From: Minisyncoccota bacterium
GTDB lineage: Bacteria; Patescibacteriota; Minisyncoccia; Phycocordibacterales; Phycocordibacteraceae
Direction: 5' to 3'
Length of the DNA: 64,000 bases
Assembly: GCA_041664265.1 (NCBI GenBank)
Contig: JBAYLD010000003.1
Location: forward strand, 7,988 to 71,987
Each line of letters opens with the position of its first letter. Positions within the stretch are counted from its first letter, which is position 1. Positions 1,048 to 55,667 of this stretch are shown piece after piece. The translations under genes and the position numbers were made by a program. The notes below the pieces were generated by a model. It worked only from the letters and a program-made list of their open reading frames with translations, ran no database searches and was not told the origin of the DNA.

Positions 1048-1058
1048 CGATCTTTGTT

Positions 1059-1138
1059 GTGCATACTCAGTATGCACATGAGCGCGACTATCCGCGTGTA
1101 CCTTAATTTACGCTATAGCGTAAATTAAGGTACACGCG
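1059..1138. repeat. Composite palindromic repeat element copy A: 19-bp palindrome GTGCATACTCAGTATGCAC (1059-1077) followed by 46-bp perfect palindrome CGCGTGTACCTTAATTTACGCTATAGCGTAAATTAAGGTACACGCG (1093-1138)
   Basis: Read directly from sequence; reverse complement identical; related copies at 9814-9887 and 55107-55146. Confidence 0.85.
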
Positions 1139-3651: not shown

Positions 3652-5805
3652 ATGTCTCCTCATCGCACACAGCGGCATACTGTTATAACTTCTCTCCTTG
3701 TCCTTTTTGGGCTTGGACTTATTTTTGCCGGCGGTATTCTTGTATTAGTAGCGATCACTCCTGTGCCCGATATTAGTTCCTTTGCGAGCCGACAGATCAA
3801 CCAGTCGACAAAAATATACGATCGTACTGGGCAGGTTCTCTTATACGATTATAATCGGGACGCGAAGCGAGAGATTGTTCCGCTCGTATCCATGTCTCCT
3901 CATGTCATACAATCGACCATAGCGATCGAGGATTCGAGTTTTTATACACATGGCGGCATCCGCCTCACCTCTATCGTTCGCGCGATGATTGCTGATGTTC
4001 TTGGGGGTTCGCTTTCCCAAGGAGGTTCAACCATCACCCAGCAGGTGGTGAAGAATACGCTCCTCACAAATAAAAAAAGTGTGGTGCGTAAAATACATGA
4101 GTGGGCGCTCGCACTTCGACTCGAACAAGCCTACTCAAAGGACCAGATACTCGAGACCTATCTTAACAATATCCCCTTCGGGGGTACGCTCTATGGCGTC
4201 GAGGCGGCATCAGAGGCTTATTTCGGGATACCTGCAAAGGATCTTTCTGTTGCGAAGTCGGCATATCTCTCAGCTATGATACAGGCTCCTTCATTTTATT
4301 CGCCGTATGGGGCGAATCGCGCAAAACTCGATATGCGCAAAAATCTTGTGCTTGACCGCATGCGCGCACTCGGCTTCTTAGATGACGCCGCATATGCGTC
4401 CGCAAAAACAGAAGAGGTTTTGTTTGCCCCTGCGGGCCAGAACGCAATCATCGCGCCGCATTTCGTTTTTTATATCCTCAACCAGCTCGAAGAAAAATAT
4501 GGGAAGAATGCTTTGATTGGGGGGTTAAAGGTGACCACCACGCTTGATGCTGATCTCGAGACAAAAGCAGAATCAATAGTGAACAGCTACGCGCTTAAAA
4601 ACCAGAAGGATTTTAACGCATCAAATGCCACTTTGGTCGCGATCGACCCCCCGACGGGGCAAATTCTCGCGATGGTGGGCTCGCGCGACTTCTTTGACAC
4701 GACTATCGACGGGCAATATAATGCCGCGCTTGCCCTACGGCAACCAGGTTCGACCATGAAGCCGTTTATCTATTCGCTCGCCTTGATGCGCGGCTATACG
4801 CGCAACACGGTCGTCTTTGATACACCGACGCAATTCTCAACAGCTTGCAGACCCTTTGATGTCACGAACAACACACCACCCTGCTACGCTCCTGAAGACT
4901 ACGATGGCGCCTTTCGCGGCCCAATGACCTTTGAGACAGCACTCGCCCAATCGATCAACATACCCGCTATTAAGGTTCTTTACTTGGTTGGCATACAAAA
5001 CGCCATACATTTTGCAAAATCATTCGGGCTCACCACCCTCGGCGACCCGAGCCAATACGGCCTCACGCTCGTGCTCGGCGGTGGCGAAGTGAGGCTTCTC
5101 GACCTCACAGGCGCCTATGCCGCCTTCGCGAATGATGGAGTACAGAACACGCCCACAGGCATCCTCGAGGTGAATGATGCACAAGGGAATGTGCTTGAGC
5201 GCTATACCGCATCACCAGTCGTTGTAGCACCTACAAATATCGCGCGTGATATTTCAGCCATGCTTTCTAACGCCCAGGCGCGCCTACCAGAATATCCACT
5301 GAATTCTCCTCTCTCCTTCTCTGGCTATGACGTAGCGGTTAAGACAGGTACGACCGATGACACCCGTGACGCATGGGTGATCGGCTACACCCCCTCTATC
5401 GCCATCGGCGTCTGGACGGGTAATAATGACAACTCGAAGATGGTCAAATCTGTCGCTGGATTTATCGCGGCACCGATGTGGCATGAGGTGATGGCGTATG
5501 CGCTTTCAAAATATCCCCAGACATATTTTGGTGAACCAAGCCCGCTCTATGCCTCAGTACCGCCGATGTTGCAGGGGAATTGGCGTATACCTGATGCACA
5601 AGGAAATATCGTCCCGCACAGCCTCTTATATTGGACCGATAAACAAAATCCACAAGGAGCGCCTCCTTCAAATCCTGCACAAGACCCTCAATTCGCGTAT
5701 TGGGAGTATGGTGTATCTGCTTGGTACAACTCCCACCCCAACCTCTTCTCTGGAGGCGTCATGCTCCCTGTCCCGCTTTCTAATAACACTACTGTCGCTC
5801 AATAA
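3652..5805 (+). CDS. Class A penicillin-binding protein (bifunctional glycosyltransferase GT51 / transpeptidase), N-terminal membrane anchor
   Basis: GT51 motifs EDSSFYTHGG, GGSTITQQ; transpeptidase STMKP (SxxK), SFN-like and KTGT motifs; TM helix residues 12-35. Confidence 0.9.
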   Translation: MSPHRTQRHTVITSLLVLFGLGLIFAGGILVLVAITPVPDISSFASRQINQSTKIYDRTGQVLLYDYNRDAKREIVPLVSMSPHVIQSTIAIEDSSFYTHGGIRLTSIVRAMIADVLGGSLSQGGSTITQQVVKNTLLTNKKSVVRKIHEWALALRLEQAYSKDQILETYLNNIPFGGTLYGVEAASEAYFGIPAKDLSVAKSAYLSAMIQAPSFYSPYGANRAKLDMRKNLVLDRMRALGFLDDAAYASAKTEEVLFAPAGQNAIIAPHFVFYILNQLEEKYGKNALIGGLKVTTTLDADLETKAESIVNSYALKNQKDFNASNATLVAIDPPTGQILAMVGSRDFFDTTIDGQYNAALALRQPGSTMKPFIYSLALMRGYTRNTVVFDTPTQFSTACRPFDVTNNTPPCYAPEDYDGAFRGPMTFETALAQSINIPAIKVLYLVGIQNAIHFAKSFGLTTLGDPSQYGLTLVLGGGEVRLLDLTGAYAAFANDGVQNTPTGILEVNDAQGNVLERYTASPVVVAPTNIARDISAMLSNAQARLPEYPLNSPLSFSGYDVAVKTGTTDDTRDAWVIGYTPSIAIGVWTGNNDNSKMVKSVAGFIAAPMWHEVMAYALSKYPQTYFGEPSPLYASVPPMLQGNWRIPDAQGNIVPHSLLYWTDKQNPQGAPPSNPAQDPQFAYWEYGVSAWYNSHPNLFSGGVMLPVPLSNNTTVAQ

Positions 5806-7055: not shown

Positions 7056-8441
7056 TCATACAAGAAGGGTACGGATATTTTGAATCTCAGTTGCGAGATC
7101 ACTATCCACAACAATTTCACGCTTTACCTTCTCACAAGAGTGGATAACAGTCGTATGATCTCTCCCTCCTAATTTTGTGCCGATAGCGGGATACGAGATA
7201 TTAAAATCTTCCCTCAAGAGGTACATAATAACTTGCCGCGGGCGCACCACTTCCCTCCTACGAGTCTTTTCGTAGATACTTTCTTCATCAATACCATAGA
7301 ATTCTGCCACTTTATCAACGACGTTTTTTACCGATATGCTTTTTTGAGGTCGGGTGAATGAGCGGAGTGACTGCCGCACTTCAGCTATATCAGGCGCACA
7401 CCCCTTCACCTGCGCGTGGCACACAATGCTATTTATCATTCCCTCCAGTTCACGTATTGATCCAGAAAGAGAGGTTGCGACATACTCGACCACTTCATCC
7501 GAGAGTATAAAACCATGTAGAGCAGCCTTTTTTCGTATAATAGCCATGCGCGATTCCGAATCAGGTTCGCTAATATCAACAGCCATACCACTTGATAAAC
7601 GGCTCTTTAAGCGCTCAGCAATATCAGGGATAGCTACAGGAGCGCGGTCGGAGGAAAAAATAATTTGTTTATTTGTGTCGTGGAGGGTATTAAAAAGGTG
7701 GAAAAGCTCCTCTTGCGTCTTATCCTTCTTAGAGAGGAATTGTACATCGTCCATGATCAAAAGATCGTATTGACGATATTTATCTTTAAAGCGATTTGCG
7801 GTTCCCGCTTGTAAGGAATCGCTGTAATCAACAGCGAATTTTTCTGAGGTGAGATAAAAGACTTTTCGCCCCTGATACAATTTTTTAAACTGGTTGCCTA
7901 TCGCTTGGATAAGGTGGGTCTTCCCTCTCCCGGTATCACCATAGATAAAAAGAGGGTTATAGGTAATACCAGGGCGTCCTAGAGCCGCTTGTGCCGCGGT
8001 ATACGCGAGTGTATTAAATGAGCCGATGACAAACGTATCAAATGTGTACCTCGGGTTCAAATTGTCACTTTTGTTGATATAAAAATCATCCAAAGGGAGC
8101 TCAAGCGCGCCGCTGGTGTTCTTAACCTCCTTCTGCACCTTTCGCCGGTCATCTTTTAAAATAAGGTATTCTATGTTCCTAAACTCGTACGAAACATCCC
8201 TCAGTATCTTTAAGAGTAATGTGTGGAATTTTTTTAAGTACCAATCTTTGAAAAACTGGCTTGGCACCCCGATATAGACAACACCATCTTCATCCACTTT
8301 TGCGATAAAACTGGTACAAAACCATGTGTTGAAATTTGCTGGTGATATAGAAAGCTCAACCTGCGTTAGCACATATTCCCAAAGTTCCTGGAGATTCCCT
8401 TTATTCATAATCGTATAGTCTGAGTATACTCTTGCCTCCAA
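7056..8441 (-). CDS. dnaA: Chromosomal replication initiator protein DnaA (TTG start)
   Basis: AAA+ Walker A GDTGRGKTHL, DnaA box-binding C-terminal domain (VIMYLLRE, HTTVIHS), 461 aa. Confidence 0.95.
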   Translation of the reverse strand: MEARVYSDYTIMNKGNLQELWEYVLTQVELSISPANFNTWFCTSFIAKVDEDGVVYIGVPSQFFKDWYLKKFHTLLLKILRDVSYEFRNIEYLILKDDRRKVQKEVKNTSGALELPLDDFYINKSDNLNPRYTFDTFVIGSFNTLAYTAAQAALGRPGITYNPLFIYGDTGRGKTHLIQAIGNQFKKLYQGRKVFYLTSEKFAVDYSDSLQAGTANRFKDKYRQYDLLIMDDVQFLSKKDKTQEELFHLFNTLHDTNKQIIFSSDRAPVAIPDIAERLKSRLSSGMAVDISEPDSESRMAIIRKKAALHGFILSDEVVEYVATSLSGSIRELEGMINSIVCHAQVKGCAPDIAEVRQSLRSFTRPQKSISVKNVVDKVAEFYGIDEESIYEKTRRREVVRPRQVIMYLLREDFNISYPAIGTKLGGRDHTTVIHSCEKVKREIVVDSDLATEIQNIRTLLV

Positions 8442-8966: not shown

Positions 8967-9694
8967 TATCAGCTTTTTTCCACACCGTCTTCTATAATCC
9001 GATCTACAATGCGCTCGTTGCGCTCGTTGCGCTCGTGCCTGGCTCTGATGTGGGTATTGCTGTCGTGTTGCTCACGATCGGTATTCGGCTTATCCTCCTC
9101 CCCTTCTCCCTCTCGGCGGCGCGTACCCAGCGCGCGATGAAGGCTTTAGAGCCAAAAATCAAGGAATTGAAGGATAAACATAAGGGCGATAAAGAAAAAG
9201 AGGCGCTTGAGACTCTCGCACTCTATCGCGAATCGCGTGTGAACCCATTTGCGAGCATTTTGACGGTTTTTATCCAGATACCGGTCCTTCTCGCGCTCTA
9301 TTGGGTGTTCTATTATGAGCCGTTTTCAACGATTAATACGGCTCTGTTGTACCCGTTTACCCCCACCCCCGGCACCGCGTCACTTGAATTCCTCGGGCTC
9401 ATCTCAGTCGCAGGTAAGAGCATTACGCTCGCGGTGCTCGCGGGGCTGACCCAATTCCTCCAAGCACACATGGCGCTCAGAGGGACCATGAGCCCAGCGC
9501 ACAGCAGTGCACAAGGGGATTTCCAGAAGATTATGGGCATGCAGCTCAAATATGTCTTCCCCTTCCTTATTGGCATTATTTCATATACAACTTCTGGAGC
9601 TGTGGCGCTTTATTTCATTACCACCAACCTCGCGGGCTCGCTCCAAGAATGGCACGTCCGGCGCAAACTCGACGCCGAAGCCCTACATACATAG
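8963..9694 (+). CDS. yidC: Membrane protein insertase YidC/Oxa1 family, short form (GTG start)
   Basis: 5 TM core with conserved YidC helices, 243 aa, follows rnpA. Confidence 0.9.
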   Translation: MISAFFHTVFYNPIYNALVALVALVPGSDVGIAVVLLTIGIRLILLPFSLSAARTQRAMKALEPKIKELKDKHKGDKEKEALETLALYRESRVNPFASILTVFIQIPVLLALYWVFYYEPFSTINTALLYPFTPTPGTASLEFLGLISVAGKSITLAVLAGLTQFLQAHMALRGTMSPAHSSAQGDFQKIMGMQLKYVFPFLIGIISYTTSGAVALYFITTNLAGSLQEWHVRRKLDAEALHT

Positions 9695-9712
9695 GGCTGC
9701 CCTATGTATGTA
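9684..9712. terminator. 13-bp-stem hairpin TACATACATAGGG-ctg-CCCTATGTATGTA overlapping the yidC stop codon; 23-nt core repeated at 31971-31993
   Basis: Perfect inverted repeat seen in sequence; weak T tract follows. Confidence 0.4.
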
Positions 9713-9767: not shown

Positions 9768-9813
9768 GTATCCCCTATTTGTGCGGTCGTCGCATTTAGG
9801 GGTTAAACTGAAT

Positions 9814-9887
9814 GTACCTTCATTTACGCTATAGCGTGAAATATGGTACACACTCATCGTTCCAATCTGTGCATACCCAGTATGCAC
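9814..9887. repeat. Composite palindromic repeat element copy B (inverted order relative to copy A): degenerate GTACC-TTTACGCTATAGCGTGAAA-GGTAC palindrome (9814-9849) then GTGCATACCCAGTATGCAC (9869-9887)
   Basis: Shares CGCTATAGCG core and GTGCATAC..GTATGCAC palindrome with 1059-1138. Confidence 0.8.
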
Positions 9888-9917
9888 AACTTAAACCTTA
9901 CACCTTACCGCTTACGC

Positions 9918-11114
9918 CTAGAGCGAGTAGCTCCAGAGGGAGTCGTCGTTTTTGTTTAGAAACACGAGTGTTGTGGCATCTGGGTCGATCGCGAGCGCAG
10001 TGGCGTCGAGAGAATCCCCGGTTTCTTCTGGGAAATCGAGCACCAGCTGCGCATAGCGGCCCTCGACTTCGATCTTCCAAATCCGATCAGAGAACTGCAC
10101 AGCTCCCTGGTACCAATCATCCGGATACACAGAGTCAGTAGGAGGGTCGAGCGGGATACCGCAGTATACTGAAGAGTCGTCAGCGGCCCACACGCATTTA
10201 TCGACGATCGTAGTGACCGGGAGTGATGTGATGTCGCCCGTCTCGGTGTCAACAAGATCTAATTGCAGAGCGTTATCGAGGACGTAGCTCACCAGCGCCC
10301 ACTTCCCTGAGGGGCTCGCGAGGGCGACGAGACCGTTGAGCGGTCCGGCGATTCGGGAAAAGCGCCCAGCGTCATCGACAAGAAAGGCAGCCCCAGGGAG
10401 TGTGGCGGCTGGCTTGGTATACGCGAGATAGCGCGATTTGCCAGCAAATGAAACACGCAGCGCAGAGAGCGGGGTGCTAAACAGCTCTGCCGTACGCACA
10501 TCGTTTGTGGTACTAAGTGTCGCAACAGAACCAGTGACACCCGAGACGAGTGTGAGCACGCCCGCCGAAGAAACAGCGAGAGCAGAAATATTTTGCGGCA
10601 AAAAGAATCCTTCTGGTGGCGCCTCGGAGCGCGCCGGGAGTGCGTAGGTATTGATCGTAGAGAAATCTTCGCCGGAGAGGTACCGGACGAATGCCGTTTT
10701 TGCATCGGGGACCCACGCGGCAGATTGGATACCCGGGATCGTTTGATTATTCGTTCGGGTGACGGCTCCTGTGCGTGTGCTATAGGAGAAAACGTTTCCG
10801 CTCTGCCGTTCAATATAGTGCACCAGCGTCTCGGGAGAGGAACTTGCGTTTATCGCAGGGGCATTCACCACGGCCTCGCCCGGCACTACCGGTCCCACGC
10901 TTATCTTCACGAGCCGCGCGGATATGGGGGTCGGTTCGCCCGCGGGTGTCGTGGTGCCGGAGTCTGCAGGAAATATACCCTGCCCCGCTAGAGGGAGGTT
11001 TACGTTTGGCGCGACGGTGAGGCTCGCTTTGGGGGTGAAGAAATAGAAATAGACGAACGCACCTACTCCTATCAGGAGTATCAGAATCGCGGCGATGATC
11101 AAGATGCGTCGCAT
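9918..11114 (-). CDS. Membrane-anchored hypothetical protein (N-terminal TM, ~370 aa extracytoplasmic Ser/Thr-rich beta-rich domain); last gene of T4SS-like operon
   Basis: TM helix RRILIIAAILILLIGVGAFVYFYFF; no recognisable catalytic motif; start taken at second Met of ORF 9918-11144. Confidence 0.55.
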   Translation of the reverse strand: MRRILIIAAILILLIGVGAFVYFYFFTPKASLTVAPNVNLPLAGQGIFPADSGTTTPAGEPTPISARLVKISVGPVVPGEAVVNAPAINASSSPETLVHYIERQSGNVFSYSTRTGAVTRTNNQTIPGIQSAAWVPDAKTAFVRYLSGEDFSTINTYALPARSEAPPEGFFLPQNISALAVSSAGVLTLVSGVTGSVATLSTTNDVRTAELFSTPLSALRVSFAGKSRYLAYTKPAATLPGAAFLVDDAGRFSRIAGPLNGLVALASPSGKWALVSYVLDNALQLDLVDTETGDITSLPVTTIVDKCVWAADDSSVYCGIPLDPPTDSVYPDDWYQGAVQFSDRIWKIEVEGRYAQLVLDFPEETGDSLDATALAIDPDATTLVFLNKNDDSLWSYSL

Positions 11115-30141: not shown

Positions 30142-30253
30142 AGTACACATATAATAATAGATAGACGCGGTAATTTTGAAAAAAAGATACTGAGGTGTAC
30201 GATGGCGGTGGATCGTACAAATTCATCGAGTCAACAAGAGAAAGGAGGCTGGC

Positions 30254-30748
30254 ATGATAAAGGTAGCGGAGATTCCCGTCGCAAGGGTTCCGGTATTCAA
30301 CGTCCGGGACAAGTTTCGGGAGGGTGAGGAGGTTGACGGTGTAAGGATTGCGCGAATCGGACCCATCTTTAAACTACGCTTCCTGGGCAAACAGGAGAGG
30401 AGGATTGCCCCGAGCAGGTTGTGGGTGCAGATGCTGCTCGCCGAAGAATCGTCAAGCGTCTCTATTGTCGAAAGACTGGGCAATGTGGAAACACCGATGG
30501 CTCAGTCTTGGGAGGCATTGGCGCTGCAAGGAAAAGGTCAACGAGGGTATCTTCGTGTTGATCTTCCCACCGTCACTTTTTCTTTCGACACAAAGGGGGA
30601 CCTTTGTTCCTGGTATGTCCGGTGGCTTCCAGAAGCGAAGGGGTGGTATGTTGGGGCCACACCCATCGATAGCCCAAATTCTTTGTGGGAAAGGGGAGCT
30701 CAAGTCTTGTCGCGCCCTCCTTCTTTCCAAATGTTGCTTAACAACTGA
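30254..30748 (+). CDS. Hypothetical protein (164 aa), divergent from pilB
   Basis: Strong SD AAAGGAGG 6 nt upstream of ATG; no recognisable motif. Confidence 0.6.
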   Translation: MIKVAEIPVARVPVFNVRDKFREGEEVDGVRIARIGPIFKLRFLGKQERRIAPSRLWVQMLLAEESSSVSIVERLGNVETPMAQSWEALALQGKGQRGYLRVDLPTVTFSFDTKGDLCSWYVRWLPEAKGWYVGATPIDSPNSLWERGAQVLSRPPSFQMLLNN

Positions 30749-30756
30749 TCCCCGAA

Positions 30757-30807
30757 CCCTCCGTCCCCGTGCCACCTCGGCACCGGAACGGAGGGTTTTG
30801 TCTTTTT
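30757..30807 (+). terminator. Rho-independent terminator (CCCTCCGTCCCCGTGCC-acctc-GGCACCGGAACGGAGGG + TTTTGTCTTTTTT)
   Basis: Long GC stem and T-run directly after stop of 30254-30748. Confidence 0.75.
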
Positions 30808-30822
30808 TACAGGCTATCCACA

Positions 30823-30896
30823 ACTTGTCGCTATAGCGACAAGTCTTGGATACCTACCTCGCATGAGCTTGACAAAATAGCCGAGTCGTGTATACT
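30823..30896 (+). promoter_or_regulatory. Promoter module 1: 20-bp palindrome CTTGTCGCTATAGCGACAAG, shared 17-mer GACAAGTCTTGGATACC (30837-30853), -35 TTGACA (30868-30873), 16-nt spacer, -10 TATACT (30890-30895)
   Basis: Consensus sigma70-like hexamers with optimal spacing; near-identical module at 31998-32062. Confidence 0.6.
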
Positions 30897-31068
30897 GGTG
30901 GTAGTTAGGTCTTTGACAGGTTCAACTACCGTTTGCCGTAGCAGAAAGTGGCTTATTTACTAGCTTTTAGGCCAAAAATAAGCAATTGTCTGCTATGGCA
31001 AACCCGCCAAGCCCCCACAATCTCGGGCAGAGGGATACTTTCGGCAATCAGCCGAGAAGGAGAGCACA

Positions 31069-31650
31069 ATGAAATACGGAGAATTGAATTTAGGTCAAAT
31101 CGAGGCAATCGTGAACAAACTGGGCGGCATGGAAGGCGTTCAGCGCTTTCTCGCTGGTAATTCCGAAGTAGTTGAGAAGAATCTCGCCATTTCTGAAGTA
31201 TTCCGCCTCACGGTCGACTACGGCAAATCGTTTGAGCAGATGATTGCCGCAGGTGACTATGACTGGAAGAACGACGACATCACCGCGAAGCGATTCCCTA
31301 TCGAGGGAGAAGGCATTGCCGAATTCGAGGCACGCTATTTCCACTCCAACCGCAATATTTCCTCGGAAGACGCGGTGAAGGAGATCGAGTCGGCAGATGC
31401 GGAAAATCCGTGGATGCCCGCCAAGATCGAACACGTGCTTTCGCACGGGGCTACATTCCCCGAAGAACAGCGCAAGTTCCCGATCATCGGCCTTGGCTCG
31501 GTCGCGGGGGTCGTTGGCAGCCGCAGCGTGCCGTGCCTCTTCGGGGACGGTTCCGAGCGGCGCCTCGACCTGGGTTGGTGGCGCAGCGGCTGCGGCGTCT
31601 GGGGTTCGCGCTTTCGGTCCCTCGCCGTTCGCAAGGTCTCTGTACCTTAG
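31069..31650 (+). CDS. Hypothetical protein (193 aa by ORF track; C-terminal ~70 aa lie in a GC-rich region open in all three frames, so true 3' end uncertain)
   Basis: SD AAGGAG 8 nt upstream of ATG; ~170-nt 5' leader from promoter module 1; no recognisable motif. Confidence 0.5.
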   Translation: MKYGELNLGQIEAIVNKLGGMEGVQRFLAGNSEVVEKNLAISEVFRLTVDYGKSFEQMIAAGDYDWKNDDITAKRFPIEGEGIAEFEARYFHSNRNISSEDAVKEIESADAENPWMPAKIEHVLSHGATFPEEQRKFPIIGLGSVAGVVGSRSVPCLFGDGSERRLDLGWWRSGCGVWGSRFRSLAVRKVSVP

Positions 31651-31703
31651 GCTTCGGAAATTGTCCCTTGGACCCTTGGATCCTTTGAACCTTTTAACTA
31701 AAA

Positions 31704-31733
31704 CCCTCGCACTTCACGGTGCGGGGGTTTTCT
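31704..31733 (+). terminator. Rho-independent terminator (CCCTCGCAC-ttcacg-GTGCGGGGG + TTTTC)
   Basis: Seen in sequence downstream of 31069-31650. Confidence 0.65.
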
Positions 31734-31970
31734 CATACACTAATGAACGACAAACGAAAAATCCGCGGTTACGGCTTCGGGTAGTTTGTCCGCAAGCCCG
31801 AGGGTGAGAATTCAAATGGTTACGGCTGTCTGGAGAGTGTCTTCGGGTCCGTCTCAAAAAACAGAGACAGTTGGTGAGAGGCGCTGGCGACACATAAGGT
31901 CGCAAATACGATTCAACCCGGAGAATATTCAATGGGTGGTGGTACGGATGGCGCTTCTCACAAAGCTTGC

Positions 31971-31993
31971 CATACATAGGGCTGCCCTATGTA
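31971..31993. repeat. 23-nt hairpin CATACATAGGGCTGCCCTATGTA, identical to 9686-9708
   Basis: Exact repeat seen in sequence. Confidence 0.8.
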
Positions 31994-31997
31994 GTGG

Positions 31998-32062
31998 GAC
32001 AAGTCTTGGATACCCTATGTCCAGGGCTTTTTTGTTGACACACATGGCTCGTTTGGTATACT
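31998..32062 (+). promoter_or_regulatory. Promoter module 2: 17-mer GACAAGTCTTGGATACC (31998-32014), -35 TTGACA (32035-32040), 16-nt spacer, -10 TATACT (32057-32062), upstream of nusA
   Basis: Identical hexamers, spacing and upstream 17-mer as module 1. Confidence 0.6.
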
Positions 32063-32078
32063 TGCCGGTATCAGAAAT

Positions 32079-32100
32079 GCCCCATAGGGGCTTTCTTTTT
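32079..32100 (+). promoter_or_regulatory. Terminator-like hairpin GCCCCATAGGGGC + TTTCTTTTT located between predicted promoter and nusA ATG (possible leader attenuator)
   Basis: Seen in sequence 17 nt after -10 and 28 nt before nusA start. Confidence 0.4.
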
Positions 32101-32127
32101 AACAAAGTGCGAACATACATATTCCAT

Positions 32128-33519
32128 ATGATTGACCTAAAAACCATCAATGCAGTGCTCGGAGAGTTCGAGGATCGGGGCATCAGCCGCGAGACGATGA
32201 TCGAGGCTATCGAGAGCGCTATGGCGACCGCCTACAAGCGCGAATACGGCAAGCGCGGGCAGGTCGTGCGCGCCAAGCTCGACCTCAACACGGGCACGAT
32301 GCAGTTTGAACAGGTGAAGACGGTGGTGGACGACACCACGGTGCGCTTCCCTGCCCCCGATGAAGAGCTTCTCGATGAACACACACATACGCACTCATTT
32401 CATAGTGAAGAAGAACAGGTGGCTGAGGGCGAGTTGCCTCGCTTTGACTCTGAGAAGCATATCCTCCTTGCCGACGCGAAGCTGATCAAGCGCGGCACCA
32501 TGGTTGGTGAAGAGATCATCTTCCCTCTTGAGCCGCAGGACGACTTCGGCCGCATCGCGGCGCAAACCGCCAAGCAGGTGGTGATCCAAAAGGTGCGCGA
32601 GGCAGAGAAGCTCTCGATGATGGAGGAGTTTAGCGAGAAGAAGGGCCAGATCGTGAGCGGCATCGTGCAGCGCATGGAGCGCGGCGCGATCTTTGTCGAT
32701 CTCGGCCGTACGACCGGCATCATCCCCTACGAGGAGCAGATCCCCGGCGAGCGGTACCGCATGGGCGAGCGCATTCGCGCCTACCTCTATGCGGTGGATG
32801 AAGGCTTCCGTGGCGTCTACTTGCGCCTCTCTCGTGCGCATCCGAAGTTCGTCGTGAAGCTCTTTGAGCTCGAGGCGCCCGAGCTCGCAAGTGGCGCGAT
32901 TGAGGTCAGGGCGCTCGCGCGGGAGCCCGGCAGCCGTACCAAAATCGCCCTTGCTTCGCGCGAAGCGCATGTGGATCCTGTCGGCTCTCTTGTCGGTCAG
33001 CGAGGTGTGCGCGTCTCGACCGTGATGAGCGAGCTCGGCGGTGAGCGCATCGACATCATCGAGTGGAACGACGACCCGAAGGAGTTTGTGAAGGAAGCGC
33101 TCTCTCCCGCGACACCGCTTGAGGTGGTGCTTGATGAGGCGGATCATCGCGCGACCGTGACGGTCGCTGAAGATGAACAATCGCTCGCGATCGGCCGTGG
33201 CGGCCAGAACGTCCGCCTCGCGGCGAAGCTCACCGGTTGGAACATCGACATCATCTCTGCCGGCGGTAATGAGATCGCAGAGTCGGACGGCGACTCGGTC
33301 GTTGTCGCGACTGACGGCGACTCAGTTCTCGTTGAGGCTGGCACCGAGAACCCTGCAGAGACGATGGGTGTGATGCCAACCGAGAGCTTCACGGCTGTTG
33401 TCGAGAACGATCCGGAAACGTCTGAACTCCCTGCGGAGGAAGAGCTCGCGACACTCCCTGCAAGCGACGAGACGGTCGCTGACGCAGAAGAAGATCGCGA
33501 TCCAGCAAAAGACGAATAA
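32128..33519 (+). CDS. nusA: Transcription termination/antitermination factor NusA with acidic C-terminal tail
   Basis: MIDLKTINAVL start, S1 and two KH domains (GxxG), start at internal Met of ORF 31786-33519. Confidence 0.95.
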   Translation: MIDLKTINAVLGEFEDRGISRETMIEAIESAMATAYKREYGKRGQVVRAKLDLNTGTMQFEQVKTVVDDTTVRFPAPDEELLDEHTHTHSFHSEEEQVAEGELPRFDSEKHILLADAKLIKRGTMVGEEIIFPLEPQDDFGRIAAQTAKQVVIQKVREAEKLSMMEEFSEKKGQIVSGIVQRMERGAIFVDLGRTTGIIPYEEQIPGERYRMGERIRAYLYAVDEGFRGVYLRLSRAHPKFVVKLFELEAPELASGAIEVRALAREPGSRTKIALASREAHVDPVGSLVGQRGVRVSTVMSELGGERIDIIEWNDDPKEFVKEALSPATPLEVVLDEADHRATVTVAEDEQSLAIGRGGQNVRLAAKLTGWNIDIISAGGNEIAESDGDSVVVATDGDSVLVEAGTENPAETMGVMPTESFTAVVENDPETSELPAEEELATLPASDETVADAEEDRDPAKDE

Positions 33520-34840: not shown

Positions 34841-34841
34841 T

Positions 34842-34896
34842 GGACAAGTCAGACTTGTCCAAACAAAAACCCGCCCTCAGGCGGGGTTTTGTGTTT
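34842..34896 (+). terminator. Palindrome GGACAAGTCAGACTTGTCC followed by rho-independent terminator (CCCGCC-ctcag-GCGGGG + TTTTGTGTTT)
   Basis: Seen in sequence directly after clpP stop. Confidence 0.7.
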
Positions 34897-54844: not shown

Positions 54845-55667
54845 AACAAAGAAATCACTCGGGCAGAATTTTTTGATGCATACGCGCATCGCAGAGCGAA
54901 TTGCTGATGCGGCCAAGCTCGCATCGGATGCGACTGTGCTCGAGATCGGTCCGGGGACGGGGATGCTCACGCGAGAACTTTTGAAAAAAGCGAAAAAAGT
55001 AATCGCAGTTGAGGCCGACCAAGAACTTTTTGAAAAACTACAGGCTGATTTTGCAAGTGAAATCGCCTCTGGTCAGCTCGAGCTCATCTACGGCGACATC
55101 CGCAACGTGTACCTTAATTTACGCTATAGCGTAAAAGATGGTACATCTGAAAAGTATGAAATAGTGGCGAATATTCCGTATTATCTGACCGGGGAGATTT
55201 TCAGAATGTTCCTCACGGCCGAGCATCAGCCAAGCTCGATGACGCTCTTGGTGCAGAAAGAGGTTGCGGAGAGAATAGCGCGGAGCAACCCCGACGCGAA
55301 GCGGTCGGGGCCCCGACCAAAGCGTCGGGGGAAAGAATCAATTCTCTCGCTCTCGGTTAAGGCGTTTGGGATGCCAAAGTATGAATTCACGGTCCCGCGC
55401 GGCGCCTTCATGCCCGCACCCAAGGTAGATTCTGCAGTGCTCGCTATCCGCGACATCTCGCGCAAGAATTTTGCCTCGCACGCCCAAGAGGAACAATTTT
55501 TCAAACTTTTGCACGCCGGATTCGCTCATAAGCGCAAATTTGTCCGCAAAAATCTCTTGGAGGCTTCGCTTCCGCAAGGCGAGATCCCAGAGAAGGCTCG
55601 TGCCGAGGATGTACCGCTTGAAACATGGCTTGCTTTGAGCAAGGTCGAGGGGCTCGCAACTCTGTAG
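54828..55667 (+). CDS. rsmA: 16S rRNA (adenine1518/1519-N6)-dimethyltransferase RsmA/KsgA, with a palindromic repeat element copy embedded in-frame
   Basis: GQNFL, EIGPGTG SAM motif, ANIPY motif. Confidence 0.9.
   Translation: MTIFHKTKKSLGQNFLMHTRIAERIADAAKLASDATVLEIGPGTGMLTRELLKKAKKVIAVEADQELFEKLQADFASEIASGQLELIYGDIRNVYLNLRYSVKDGTSEKYEIVANIPYYLTGEIFRMFLTAEHQPSSMTLLVQKEVAERIARSNPDAKRSGPRPKRRGKESILSLSVKAFGMPKYEFTVPRGAFMPAPKVDSAVLAIRDISRKNFASHAQEEQFFKLLHAGFAHKRKFVRKNLLEASLPQGEIPEKARAEDVPLETWLALSKVEGLATL
55107..55146. repeat. Palindromic repeat element copy C (GTGTACCTTAATTTACGCTATAGCGTAAAAGATGGTACAT), degenerate right arm, inside rsmA coding sequence (encodes ...VYLNLRYSVKDGT...)
   Basis: Left arm and core identical to copy A at 1097-1125. 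Confidence 0.8.

Follow-up and report, generated by a model that had tools for sequence, protein, structure and literature searches.

A 17-mer shared by two promoters of a Minisyncoccota bacterium as part of palA, a putative 42-bp operator of Patescibacteria

The stretch of DNA analysed here, called the window in the following, comprises 64,000 nucleotides from a Minisyncoccota bacterium (assembly GCA_041664265.1, contig JBAYLD010000003.1, positions 7,988 to 71,987 of the forward strand). Between pilB and nusA it carries an orphan variable-protein gene of the diversity-generating retroelement (DGR) type, and both this gene and nusA are preceded by an exact copy of the same 17-mer, GACAAGTCTTGGATACC. 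A first-pass annotation had interpreted the two modules as twin promoters with a common activator or UP-like site, which would co-regulate nusA with a hypothetical gene. How members of the candidate phyla radiation control transcription is almost unknown, because they are rarely cultured. Our analysis favors a different reading, to which we assign a probability of roughly 0.6: the first copy of the 17-mer is part of palA, a 42-bp quasi-palindrome that would act as an operator, and the second is a stray remnant of a rearrangement, now used as the arm of a terminator. The features on which this argument turns are as follows.

30813–30854, no strand: palA, the complete 42-bp quasi-palindrome; the same element is found at about 36 unique sites in contigs of other Patescibacteria
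30813–30824: A arm of palA, GCTATCCACAAC, DnaA-box-like
30825–30842: core of palA, TTGTCGCTATAGCGACAA, 18 bp, a perfect palindrome
30843–30854: B arm of palA, GTCTTGGATACC
30838–30854, plus strand: copy 1 of the 17-mer, in which the final 5 bp of the core of palA are joined to the 12-bp B arm
30869–30896, plus strand: promoter of the DGR target gene, TTGACA-N16-TATACT
31069–31650, plus strand: orphan DGR variable-protein gene (193 amino acids), the DGR target gene; its segment homologous to the variable region (VR) lies at ~31494–31592
31998–32014, plus strand: copy 2 of the 17-mer, a lone half-site with neither the left half of the core nor an A arm
32001–32035, plus strand: terminator-like hairpin, AAGTCTTGGATA/TATGTCCAGGGCTT followed by TTTTTTG, whose 5' arm is the 17-mer and which abuts the −35 hexamer of nusA
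32035–32062, plus strand: nusA promoter, TTGACA-N16-(TGG)TATACT, conserved in relatives
32128–33519, plus strand: nusA

Besides its two exact copies, both on the plus strand, the window holds a third match to the 17-mer, with three mismatches, on the minus strand (30813–30829); three matches were obtained in none of 100 shuffles. Each exact copy, starting at 30838 and 31998, respectively, does precede TTGACA-N16-TATACT, as had been annotated with a one-base offset for the first module, and these are the only two instances of this arrangement in the window. The likeness of the two promoters is limited to the hexamers and the length of the spacer: the 16-nt spacers are identical at only 6 of 16 positions, and the flanks of the two 17-mers have no common similarity. 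Both copies are oriented alike, with the gene-facing half toward the promoter, at about −65 to −49 of the predicted target-gene transcript start (copy 1) and about −71 to −55 of that of nusA (copy 2). The gap to the −35 hexamer measures 14 nt at copy 1 and 20 nt at copy 2, which places the two 17-mers on roughly opposite faces of the helix. TATACT at N16 recurs in four of the five best promoter-like sites of the window, and a TTGACA-like hexamer with N16 and TATACT is the usual form of a strong promoter in the host genome. Since each of the two promoters is kept with its own gene in relatives that do not have the 17-mer, as detailed below, they have separate ancestries; they are, by this comparison, not twins, and their likeness is a likeness to the consensus.

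The palindrome that had been noted upstream of the first promoter, CTTGTCGCTATAGCGACAAG, is present and extends to the 42-bp imperfect palindrome palA, in which 18 of 21 arm positions match in dyad. The consensus of the element, [GC]TATCCACAAC-TTGTCGCTATAGCGACAA-GTCTT[GT]GATA[CG][CT], leaves ~34 constrained positions among the 42. In the window, palA lies 12 nt past the terminator of an upstream open reading frame (ORF), with its A arm distal, its B arm toward the promoter and its center at about −70 of the DGR target promoter. The dyad symmetry of an operator is therefore found at copy 1, which belongs to a full palA with a perfect 18-bp core, and is missing from copy 2.

An exact scan for the 17-mer in one genome per species (185,579 species) yielded 32 hits, most of which are chance matches or lie inside a conserved Acidobacteriaceae gene; in the four hits from Patescibacteria (loci L014, L016, L031 and L035), the 17-mer is always the right arm of a palindrome of the window type. 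A metagenome scan with the 18-bp core returned 54 loci, from which the 36 unique palA sites were obtained by discarding duplicates and palindromes with unrelated arms. The latter, which we termed class 2 (L045, L068, L087, L081, L053, L055 and L041), have the same core and were rejected as kin of palA; they are probably due to chance, because a palindromic 18-mer holds only nine nucleotides of information and because their hosts and contexts are unrelated. The arm that follows the core is common to the 36 sites (G-T-[TC]-[GT]-T-[GT]-G-A-T-A-[GC]-[CT]). The palA sequence is conserved across Paceibacteria and related Patescibacteria.

Two types of arm can be told apart, A (GTTGTGGATA, or TATCCACAAC on the other strand) and B (GTCTT[GT]GATA), and an A arm is paired with a B arm in 26 of the 32 classifiable sites, against 50% expected (binomial p ~3e-4, with kinship ignored). 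This pairing makes palA directional, and its B arm usually faces a co-directional downstream gene. Most sites are intergenic and lie a short distance upstream of −10-like hexamers, at 8, 11, 21–26, 34, 36 or 42 nt from the B arm across genomes, without helical phasing. Among the half-sites examined (~50), all are embedded in full palindromes except copy 2 of the window.

As palA folds into a strong hairpin (ΔG −25.3 kcal/mol, z −7) and as several palindrome families, palA, palB, palC and palD, co-occur in intergenic DNA, one could regard these elements, the 17-mer included, as selfish or structural hairpins without a specific binding protein, akin to repetitive extragenic palindromic (REP) sequences or miniature inverted-repeat transposable elements (MITEs). 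We consider this very improbable. The exact core occurs at low copy number, with two sites in a 693-kb contig, and even distant lineages have conserved the sequence of palA, at orthologous positions flanking a single gene. Moreover, selection for a hairpin would favor complementary arms; the arms are non-complementary in the 26 heterotypic sites, so that stem pairing is not the conserved feature. On account of this excess, we rejected hairpin selection; the pattern argues for recognition by a protein instead.

The gene in question encodes a protein of 194 amino acids with an N-terminal hydrophobic helix (read by eye from the sequence), a winged helix and a PaaX_M (Cas2-like) domain; proteins of this family are often named Cas2 by NCBI. 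About half of the 36 unique palA sites flank it. In every genome examined, the gene is bracketed by two palA-type sites. Such a pair, ~670 bp apart, is found in L014, L016, L031, L047, L076, L077 and L086, and a single flanking site is visible in L042, L050, L061 and L089. Three further loci, which were fetched by the protein and not by the palindrome (L096, L097 and L098), likewise have a palA-type site on each side of the gene. The cores in L096 and L097 differ from the canonical one, while the two sites of each gene share their own core form, and L097 keeps the site–gene–site layout although the downstream gene is convergent. The gene spans 335–925 in L014 and 1501–2085 in L096, L097 and L098. 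At the upstream site, the B arm is followed after 8–9 nt by TA[GAC]AAT, which puts the center of the site at about −42 and lets it overlap the −35 position of the gene's promoter. Among the 36 sites as well as in the three protein-fetched loci, palA thus recurs upstream of genes that include the one for its putative regulator, which is the behavior of an operator.

We found 2,622 homologs of this protein at E ≤ 1e-20, the best 120 of which are 73–100% identical. Its score against the PaaX equivalog model is 44.9 bits, compared with a cut-off of 264.55, a search of the PDB by sequence retrieved no solved relative, and no description of palA, or of the role of this protein in Patescibacteria, was found in the searchable literature. 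The PaaX_M-family protein is the best candidate for a binder of palA and probably binds it. The bracketing of its gene, the overlap with the −35 position and the low copy number are explained much better by an autoregulated operator that serves a small regulon than by a repeat of the REP or MITE kind. Other neighbors of palA are rnhB, a PD-(D/E)XK nuclease gene, a LexA-S24::methyltransferase fusion and the divergently oriented dnaE, which may hint at a theme of DNA metabolism; the ORF calling around the sites was crude and is too noisy to define a regulon. The fusion is an ORF of 487 codons in L079 (222–1682), in which LexA, with its DNA-binding domain and S24 peptidase, is apparently joined to a DNA methyltransferase with an SPPY motif; between its start and the A arm of a palA lie 74 nt.

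In several respects, palA resembles the operator of Escherichia coli PaaX and the SOS boxes of LexA. It is a dyad located in the promoter of a winged-helix gene, over the −35 position, with more copies upstream of other genes, and its core varies between distant genomes while the two sites of one gene share a form. It differs from them in that it is far longer than a usual dimer site, has asymmetric outer arms and brackets the regulator gene on both sides. Unlike PaaX, the 194-amino-acid candidate has an N-terminal membrane helix and no PaaX C-terminal domain, and its binding to palA is putative.

The A arm raises the question of a further binder. With the sequence [CG]TATCCACAA, it matches the DnaA box (TTATCCACA) at 8 of 9 positions, and extra DnaA boxes adjoin palA in L035/L043 and L067/L072. 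Together with the N-terminal helix of the PaaX_M protein, the maintenance of the site–gene–site layout next to a convergent gene in L097 and the occurrence of the related palindrome palC within the ksgA coding sequence of two genomes, this would be compatible with a chromosome-level site in place of a transcription operator, for example a composite element with a DnaA box or a centromere-like site that tethers the membrane-anchored PaaX_M protein; the closeness of the 17-mer to promoters would then be incidental. The window is also origin-proximal, given the gene order of dnaA (7062–8396, minus strand) followed by rpmH, rnpA and yidC-like ORFs (read by eye). We regard a chromosome-level site as unlikely, since most palA sites are intergenic and close upstream of −10-like hexamers and since palA overlaps the −35 position of the PaaX_M gene promoter. 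In the window itself, palA is 22 kb from dnaA, no cluster of DnaA boxes was found around it, and the 17-mer carries the B arm, whose other strand (TATCCAAGA) matches the DnaA box at only 6 of 9 positions. The short dnaA–rpmH gap shows no obvious DnaA-box cluster either.

The palindromes palC and palD deserve a separate description. The core CGCTATAGCG, which had been assigned to a repeat family, is indeed common to three 40-bp palindromes of the window (1095–1134, 9811–9850 and 55106–55145). These are the copies of palC (GTGTACCTTAATTTACGCTATAGCGTAAATTAAGGTACAC), which contains the 10-bp core of palA. The copy at 55106 falls within the ksgA/rsmA ORF but does not add to its length, and in L064 (~11040–11080), palC is found in an apparent ksgA, with a VVANIP motif after the palindrome. 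In L059 (~1365–1400) and L062 (~385–425), palC adjoins a palA. A further palindrome, palD (TGTGCATACyCAGTATGCACA), stands beside palC at both of its positions in the window (1058–1078 and 9868–9888) and beside palA in L069 (~1539). These intergenic regions hold distinct conserved palindromes in clusters.

To place the two 17-mers in their genomic context, the remaining features between pilB and nusA, and one beyond, have to be introduced.

30254–30748, plus strand: ORF164, unannotated, 164 amino acids, with a strong ribosome-binding site (AAAGGAGG-N6-ATG)
30754–30806, plus strand: intrinsic terminator of ORF164, a long G+C-rich stem and a T-run (ΔG −31.9 kcal/mol, z −5.7)
30897–31068, plus strand: structured 5' leader of the target gene, ~170 nt, conserved in L002 and L004
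31704–31733, plus strand: terminator downstream of the target gene, also conserved in both L002 and L004
31735–31966, plus strand: remnant of the non-coding segment that precedes the template repeat (TR) in intact DGRs, ~90% identical
31974–31992, no strand: palB, ACATAGGGC-T-GCCCTATGT; a second copy lies at 9689–9707
32079–32100, plus strand: hairpin and U-run in the nusA leader, conserved in position, a possible attenuator
34841–34861, no strand: clpP-side palindrome, TGGACAAGTC-A-GACTTGTCCA

In L092 and L094, pilB (minus strand) and nusA (plus strand) are only ~150 nt apart, which identifies the 1.9 kb between them in the window (30227–32127) as inserted material. The window itself differs from contig JBAZXS010000003.1 of GCA_041659725.1, a Candidatus Paceibacterota metagenome-assembled genome, by one mismatch in 8,567 bp. 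Within the insertion, ORF164 has no Pfam or NCBIfam match. The ORF at 31069, which had been described as a hypothetical gene in an unknown module, can now be identified as an orphan variable-protein gene of the DGR type. The homologs of this gene in L002 (4426–5000) and L004 (4429–5011) are followed by a TR and an RVT_1 reverse transcriptase, with a bAvd gene in addition in L004. Wherever VR and TR differ, the TR has an adenine (23 of 23 mismatches in L002, 16 of 16 in L004), as is characteristic of a DGR. The window gene is thus orthologous to DGR variable-protein genes and has kept the promoter, the leader and the segment that precedes the TR. By contrast, only the VR homolog was found in the 64 kb, with no TR, avd or reverse transcriptase, so that the gene is an orphan target, or DGR remnant, which can no longer be diversified from its own locus.

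The promoter of the target gene is conserved as TTGACAAAATAnnnnnnTCGTGTATACT in L002 and L004, neither of which has palA or the 17-mer upstream of the gene. Upstream of the −35 hexamer, both are unrelated to the window: L004 has a tRNA-His gene there, and L002 has another palindrome. In L002, palB (3757–3775) is located 35 nt upstream of the −35 hexamer, where the window has palA. L099 holds a more distant homolog of the target gene with a related TTGACA promoter and neither 17-mer nor palA nearby. The DGR cassette is found in different chromosomal contexts in L004, L099 and L101, which indicates that it moves, together with its own promoter.

Several parts of the remnant cassette appear to be structured. 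The leader of the target gene folds as a long hairpin (GCCGTAGCAGA...TCTGCTATGGC), and 8 of its 44 predicted pairs show compensatory changes among three sequences; it could be riboswitch-like or otherwise regulatory. The ~230-nt segment at 31735–31966, whose homology ends at ...CTTCTCACAA, matches ~4630–4870 in L002 and ~4640–4880 in L004 with ~90% identity, compared with ~73% for the target proteins, and may be the structured 5' part of the DGR RNA. An E-value search of 30200–32200 against Rfam gave nothing credible, including no match for this segment, and a search of the whole window at the gathering thresholds returned only tRNAs.

On the nusA side, the promoter is conserved in five relatives whose NusA proteins are 86–89% identical, among them L091, L092, L095 and L073 with the form TTGACr-N16-tggTATACT, and the 17-mer is absent upstream of nusA in all five. 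In the window, copy 2 is preceded by the conserved palindrome palB and forms the 5' arm of a hairpin with 12 pairs (ΔG −14.4 kcal/mol, z −2.5, or −4.0 together with the palB hairpin). With its stem-loop and U-run just before the −35 hexamer, the hairpin has the sequence of an intrinsic terminator, and termination is predicted; in L073 and L095, too, this position is occupied by a terminator. It is unlike a typical terminator in its G-U-rich stem, which has only four G-C pairs, and in that its 5' arm is a copy of half an operator. The terminator of L095 (2950–2990), CACTTGTC-N8-GACAAGTG (TTGTC-N8-GACAA), has the inner dyad of palA with the same spacing. Downstream of the promoter, between the −10 hexamer and the start codon (32063–32127), the leader hairpin and U-run are kept in position in L091, L092, L095, L073 and L002, while the stem differs in sequence; the bases directly preceding the ATG (GTGCGAACATACAnATTCCATATG) are conserved as well. 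The hairpin may be an attenuator autoregulated by NusA.

These observations bear on the proposal that a factor bound to the 17-mer, as a shared activator or UP-like site, co-regulates nusA and the upstream gene, which we consider doubtful. In its favor are the same sequence in the same orientation at both promoters, with the B arm on the promoter side as in bona fide sites, the end of copy 2 exactly at the functional edge of the element, the 9-bp dyad that the half carries on its own (CAAGTCTTG) and the inner dyad just upstream of the −35 hexamer of nusA in L095. UP elements are A/T-rich, are located at about −40 to −60 and contain A/T-tracts contacted by the C-terminal domain of the RNA polymerase α subunit. 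Like these and like class I activator sites, the 17-mer lies upstream of the −35 hexamer, at roughly −50 to −70. In contrast to them, it is 47% G+C (8 of 17), without A or T tracts, and hence no UP element, and its spacing is unequal, with the two copies on different helical faces. At other genes, the element abuts or overlaps the −35 position, and its distance from the −10 hexamer varies across genomes (8–42 nt) without phasing. Moreover, half of the site is missing at copy 2, the 17-mer is kept neither at nusA in five close relatives nor at the target gene in the DGR-bearing relatives examined, and the shared hexamers and spacer length reflect the consensus form of promoters in this genome. 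What stands of the annotation is a conserved cis-element in common that is linked to the starts of genes; co-regulation of the two genes through an activator or UP-like site is poorly supported. nusA has an ancestral promoter of its own, and no demonstrable co-regulation ties it to the neighboring gene.

If copy 2 is not an activator site, its presence calls for another explanation. One possibility, which we hold tentatively, is that both 17-mers are recombination scars: the DGR cassette would have integrated beside a palA that was originally located 20 nt upstream of the −35 hexamer of nusA, through a single crossover in the 17-mer or through target duplication, and copy 2 would have no regulatory role of its own. 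Accordingly, the repeat is exact (17 of 17) between dissimilar flanks, it brackets 1,143 bp of clearly inserted DNA that is absent from L092 and L094, the cassette is mobile, and the lone half is unique among its kind. Circularization of the 1,160-bp unit would, in addition, place palB 36 nt from the target-gene −35 hexamer, compared with 35 nt in L002, although this agreement is a single, coincidence-prone number. On the other hand, there is no integrase, transposase or other recombinase nearby, a target duplication of 17 bp would be long, and L002 has no comparable flanking repeat. This scenario is compatible with the reading that we favor and would account for the origin of copy 2, but it is only a lead.

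We return to palA, which is most likely a protein-binding operator. In the mechanism that we envisage, the PaaX_M-family protein would bind palA, including the site over the −35 position of its own gene, which would amount to autoregulation by repression or activation, and in the window, the full palA would serve the promoter of the orphan DGR gene. Copy 2 is probably a leftover or a product of a rearrangement, either the one that put the DGR cassette between pilB and nusA or a later one by which the cassette decayed. If it now has any role, it would contribute the 5' arm to a terminator hairpin that keeps transcription from upstream out of the ancestral nusA promoter.

Several points weigh against this reading. 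Copy 2 matches at 17 of 17 positions, stops exactly where the element has its outer edge and is turned toward the nusA promoter in the manner of real sites; this exact boundary and orientation hint at a function or at site-specific recombination. The site in L046 is oriented the opposite way relative to the PaaX_M gene, the counts of sites ignore shared ancestry, and a tblastn search of the 64-kb window did not find the PaaX_M gene, nor did it find LexA-like, PD-(D/E)XK or reverse transcriptase genes. Furthermore, 42 bp is long for a single dimer, and this length, together with the DnaA-box match of the A arm and the nearby DnaA boxes, suggests that more than one protein may bind.

The palindrome after clpP, TGGACAAGTCAGACTTGTCCA, had been linked to the same half-site. 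It is present at 34841–34861, and it has only the 8-mer GACAAGTC in common with the 17-mer. As this match is weakly significant and the palindrome is absent from relatives, we rejected it as part of the palA system.

For an operator paired with a regulator, the length of palA, its asymmetry, its DnaA-box-like arm and the bracketing of the putative regulator gene are unusual. In a more far-reaching version, to which we give little credence, palA and the membrane-anchored winged helix-turn-helix/PaaX_M (Cas2-like) protein would constitute an undescribed, Patescibacteria-wide system, in which a composite site, made of a DnaA-box arm, the 18-bp core and a promoter-facing arm, links replication or DNA-damage status, or membrane tethering, to a few genes of DNA metabolism; the half-site at nusA would then be active and not a scar. 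For the locus itself, our comparison marks the gap between pilB and nusA as an insertion hotspot. For the wider group, palA represents an exactly conserved site of 42 bp with a direction of its own, linked to a single small and ubiquitous protein that is predicted to bind DNA and is currently named Cas2 by NCBI, which makes its putative regulon testable in vitro.

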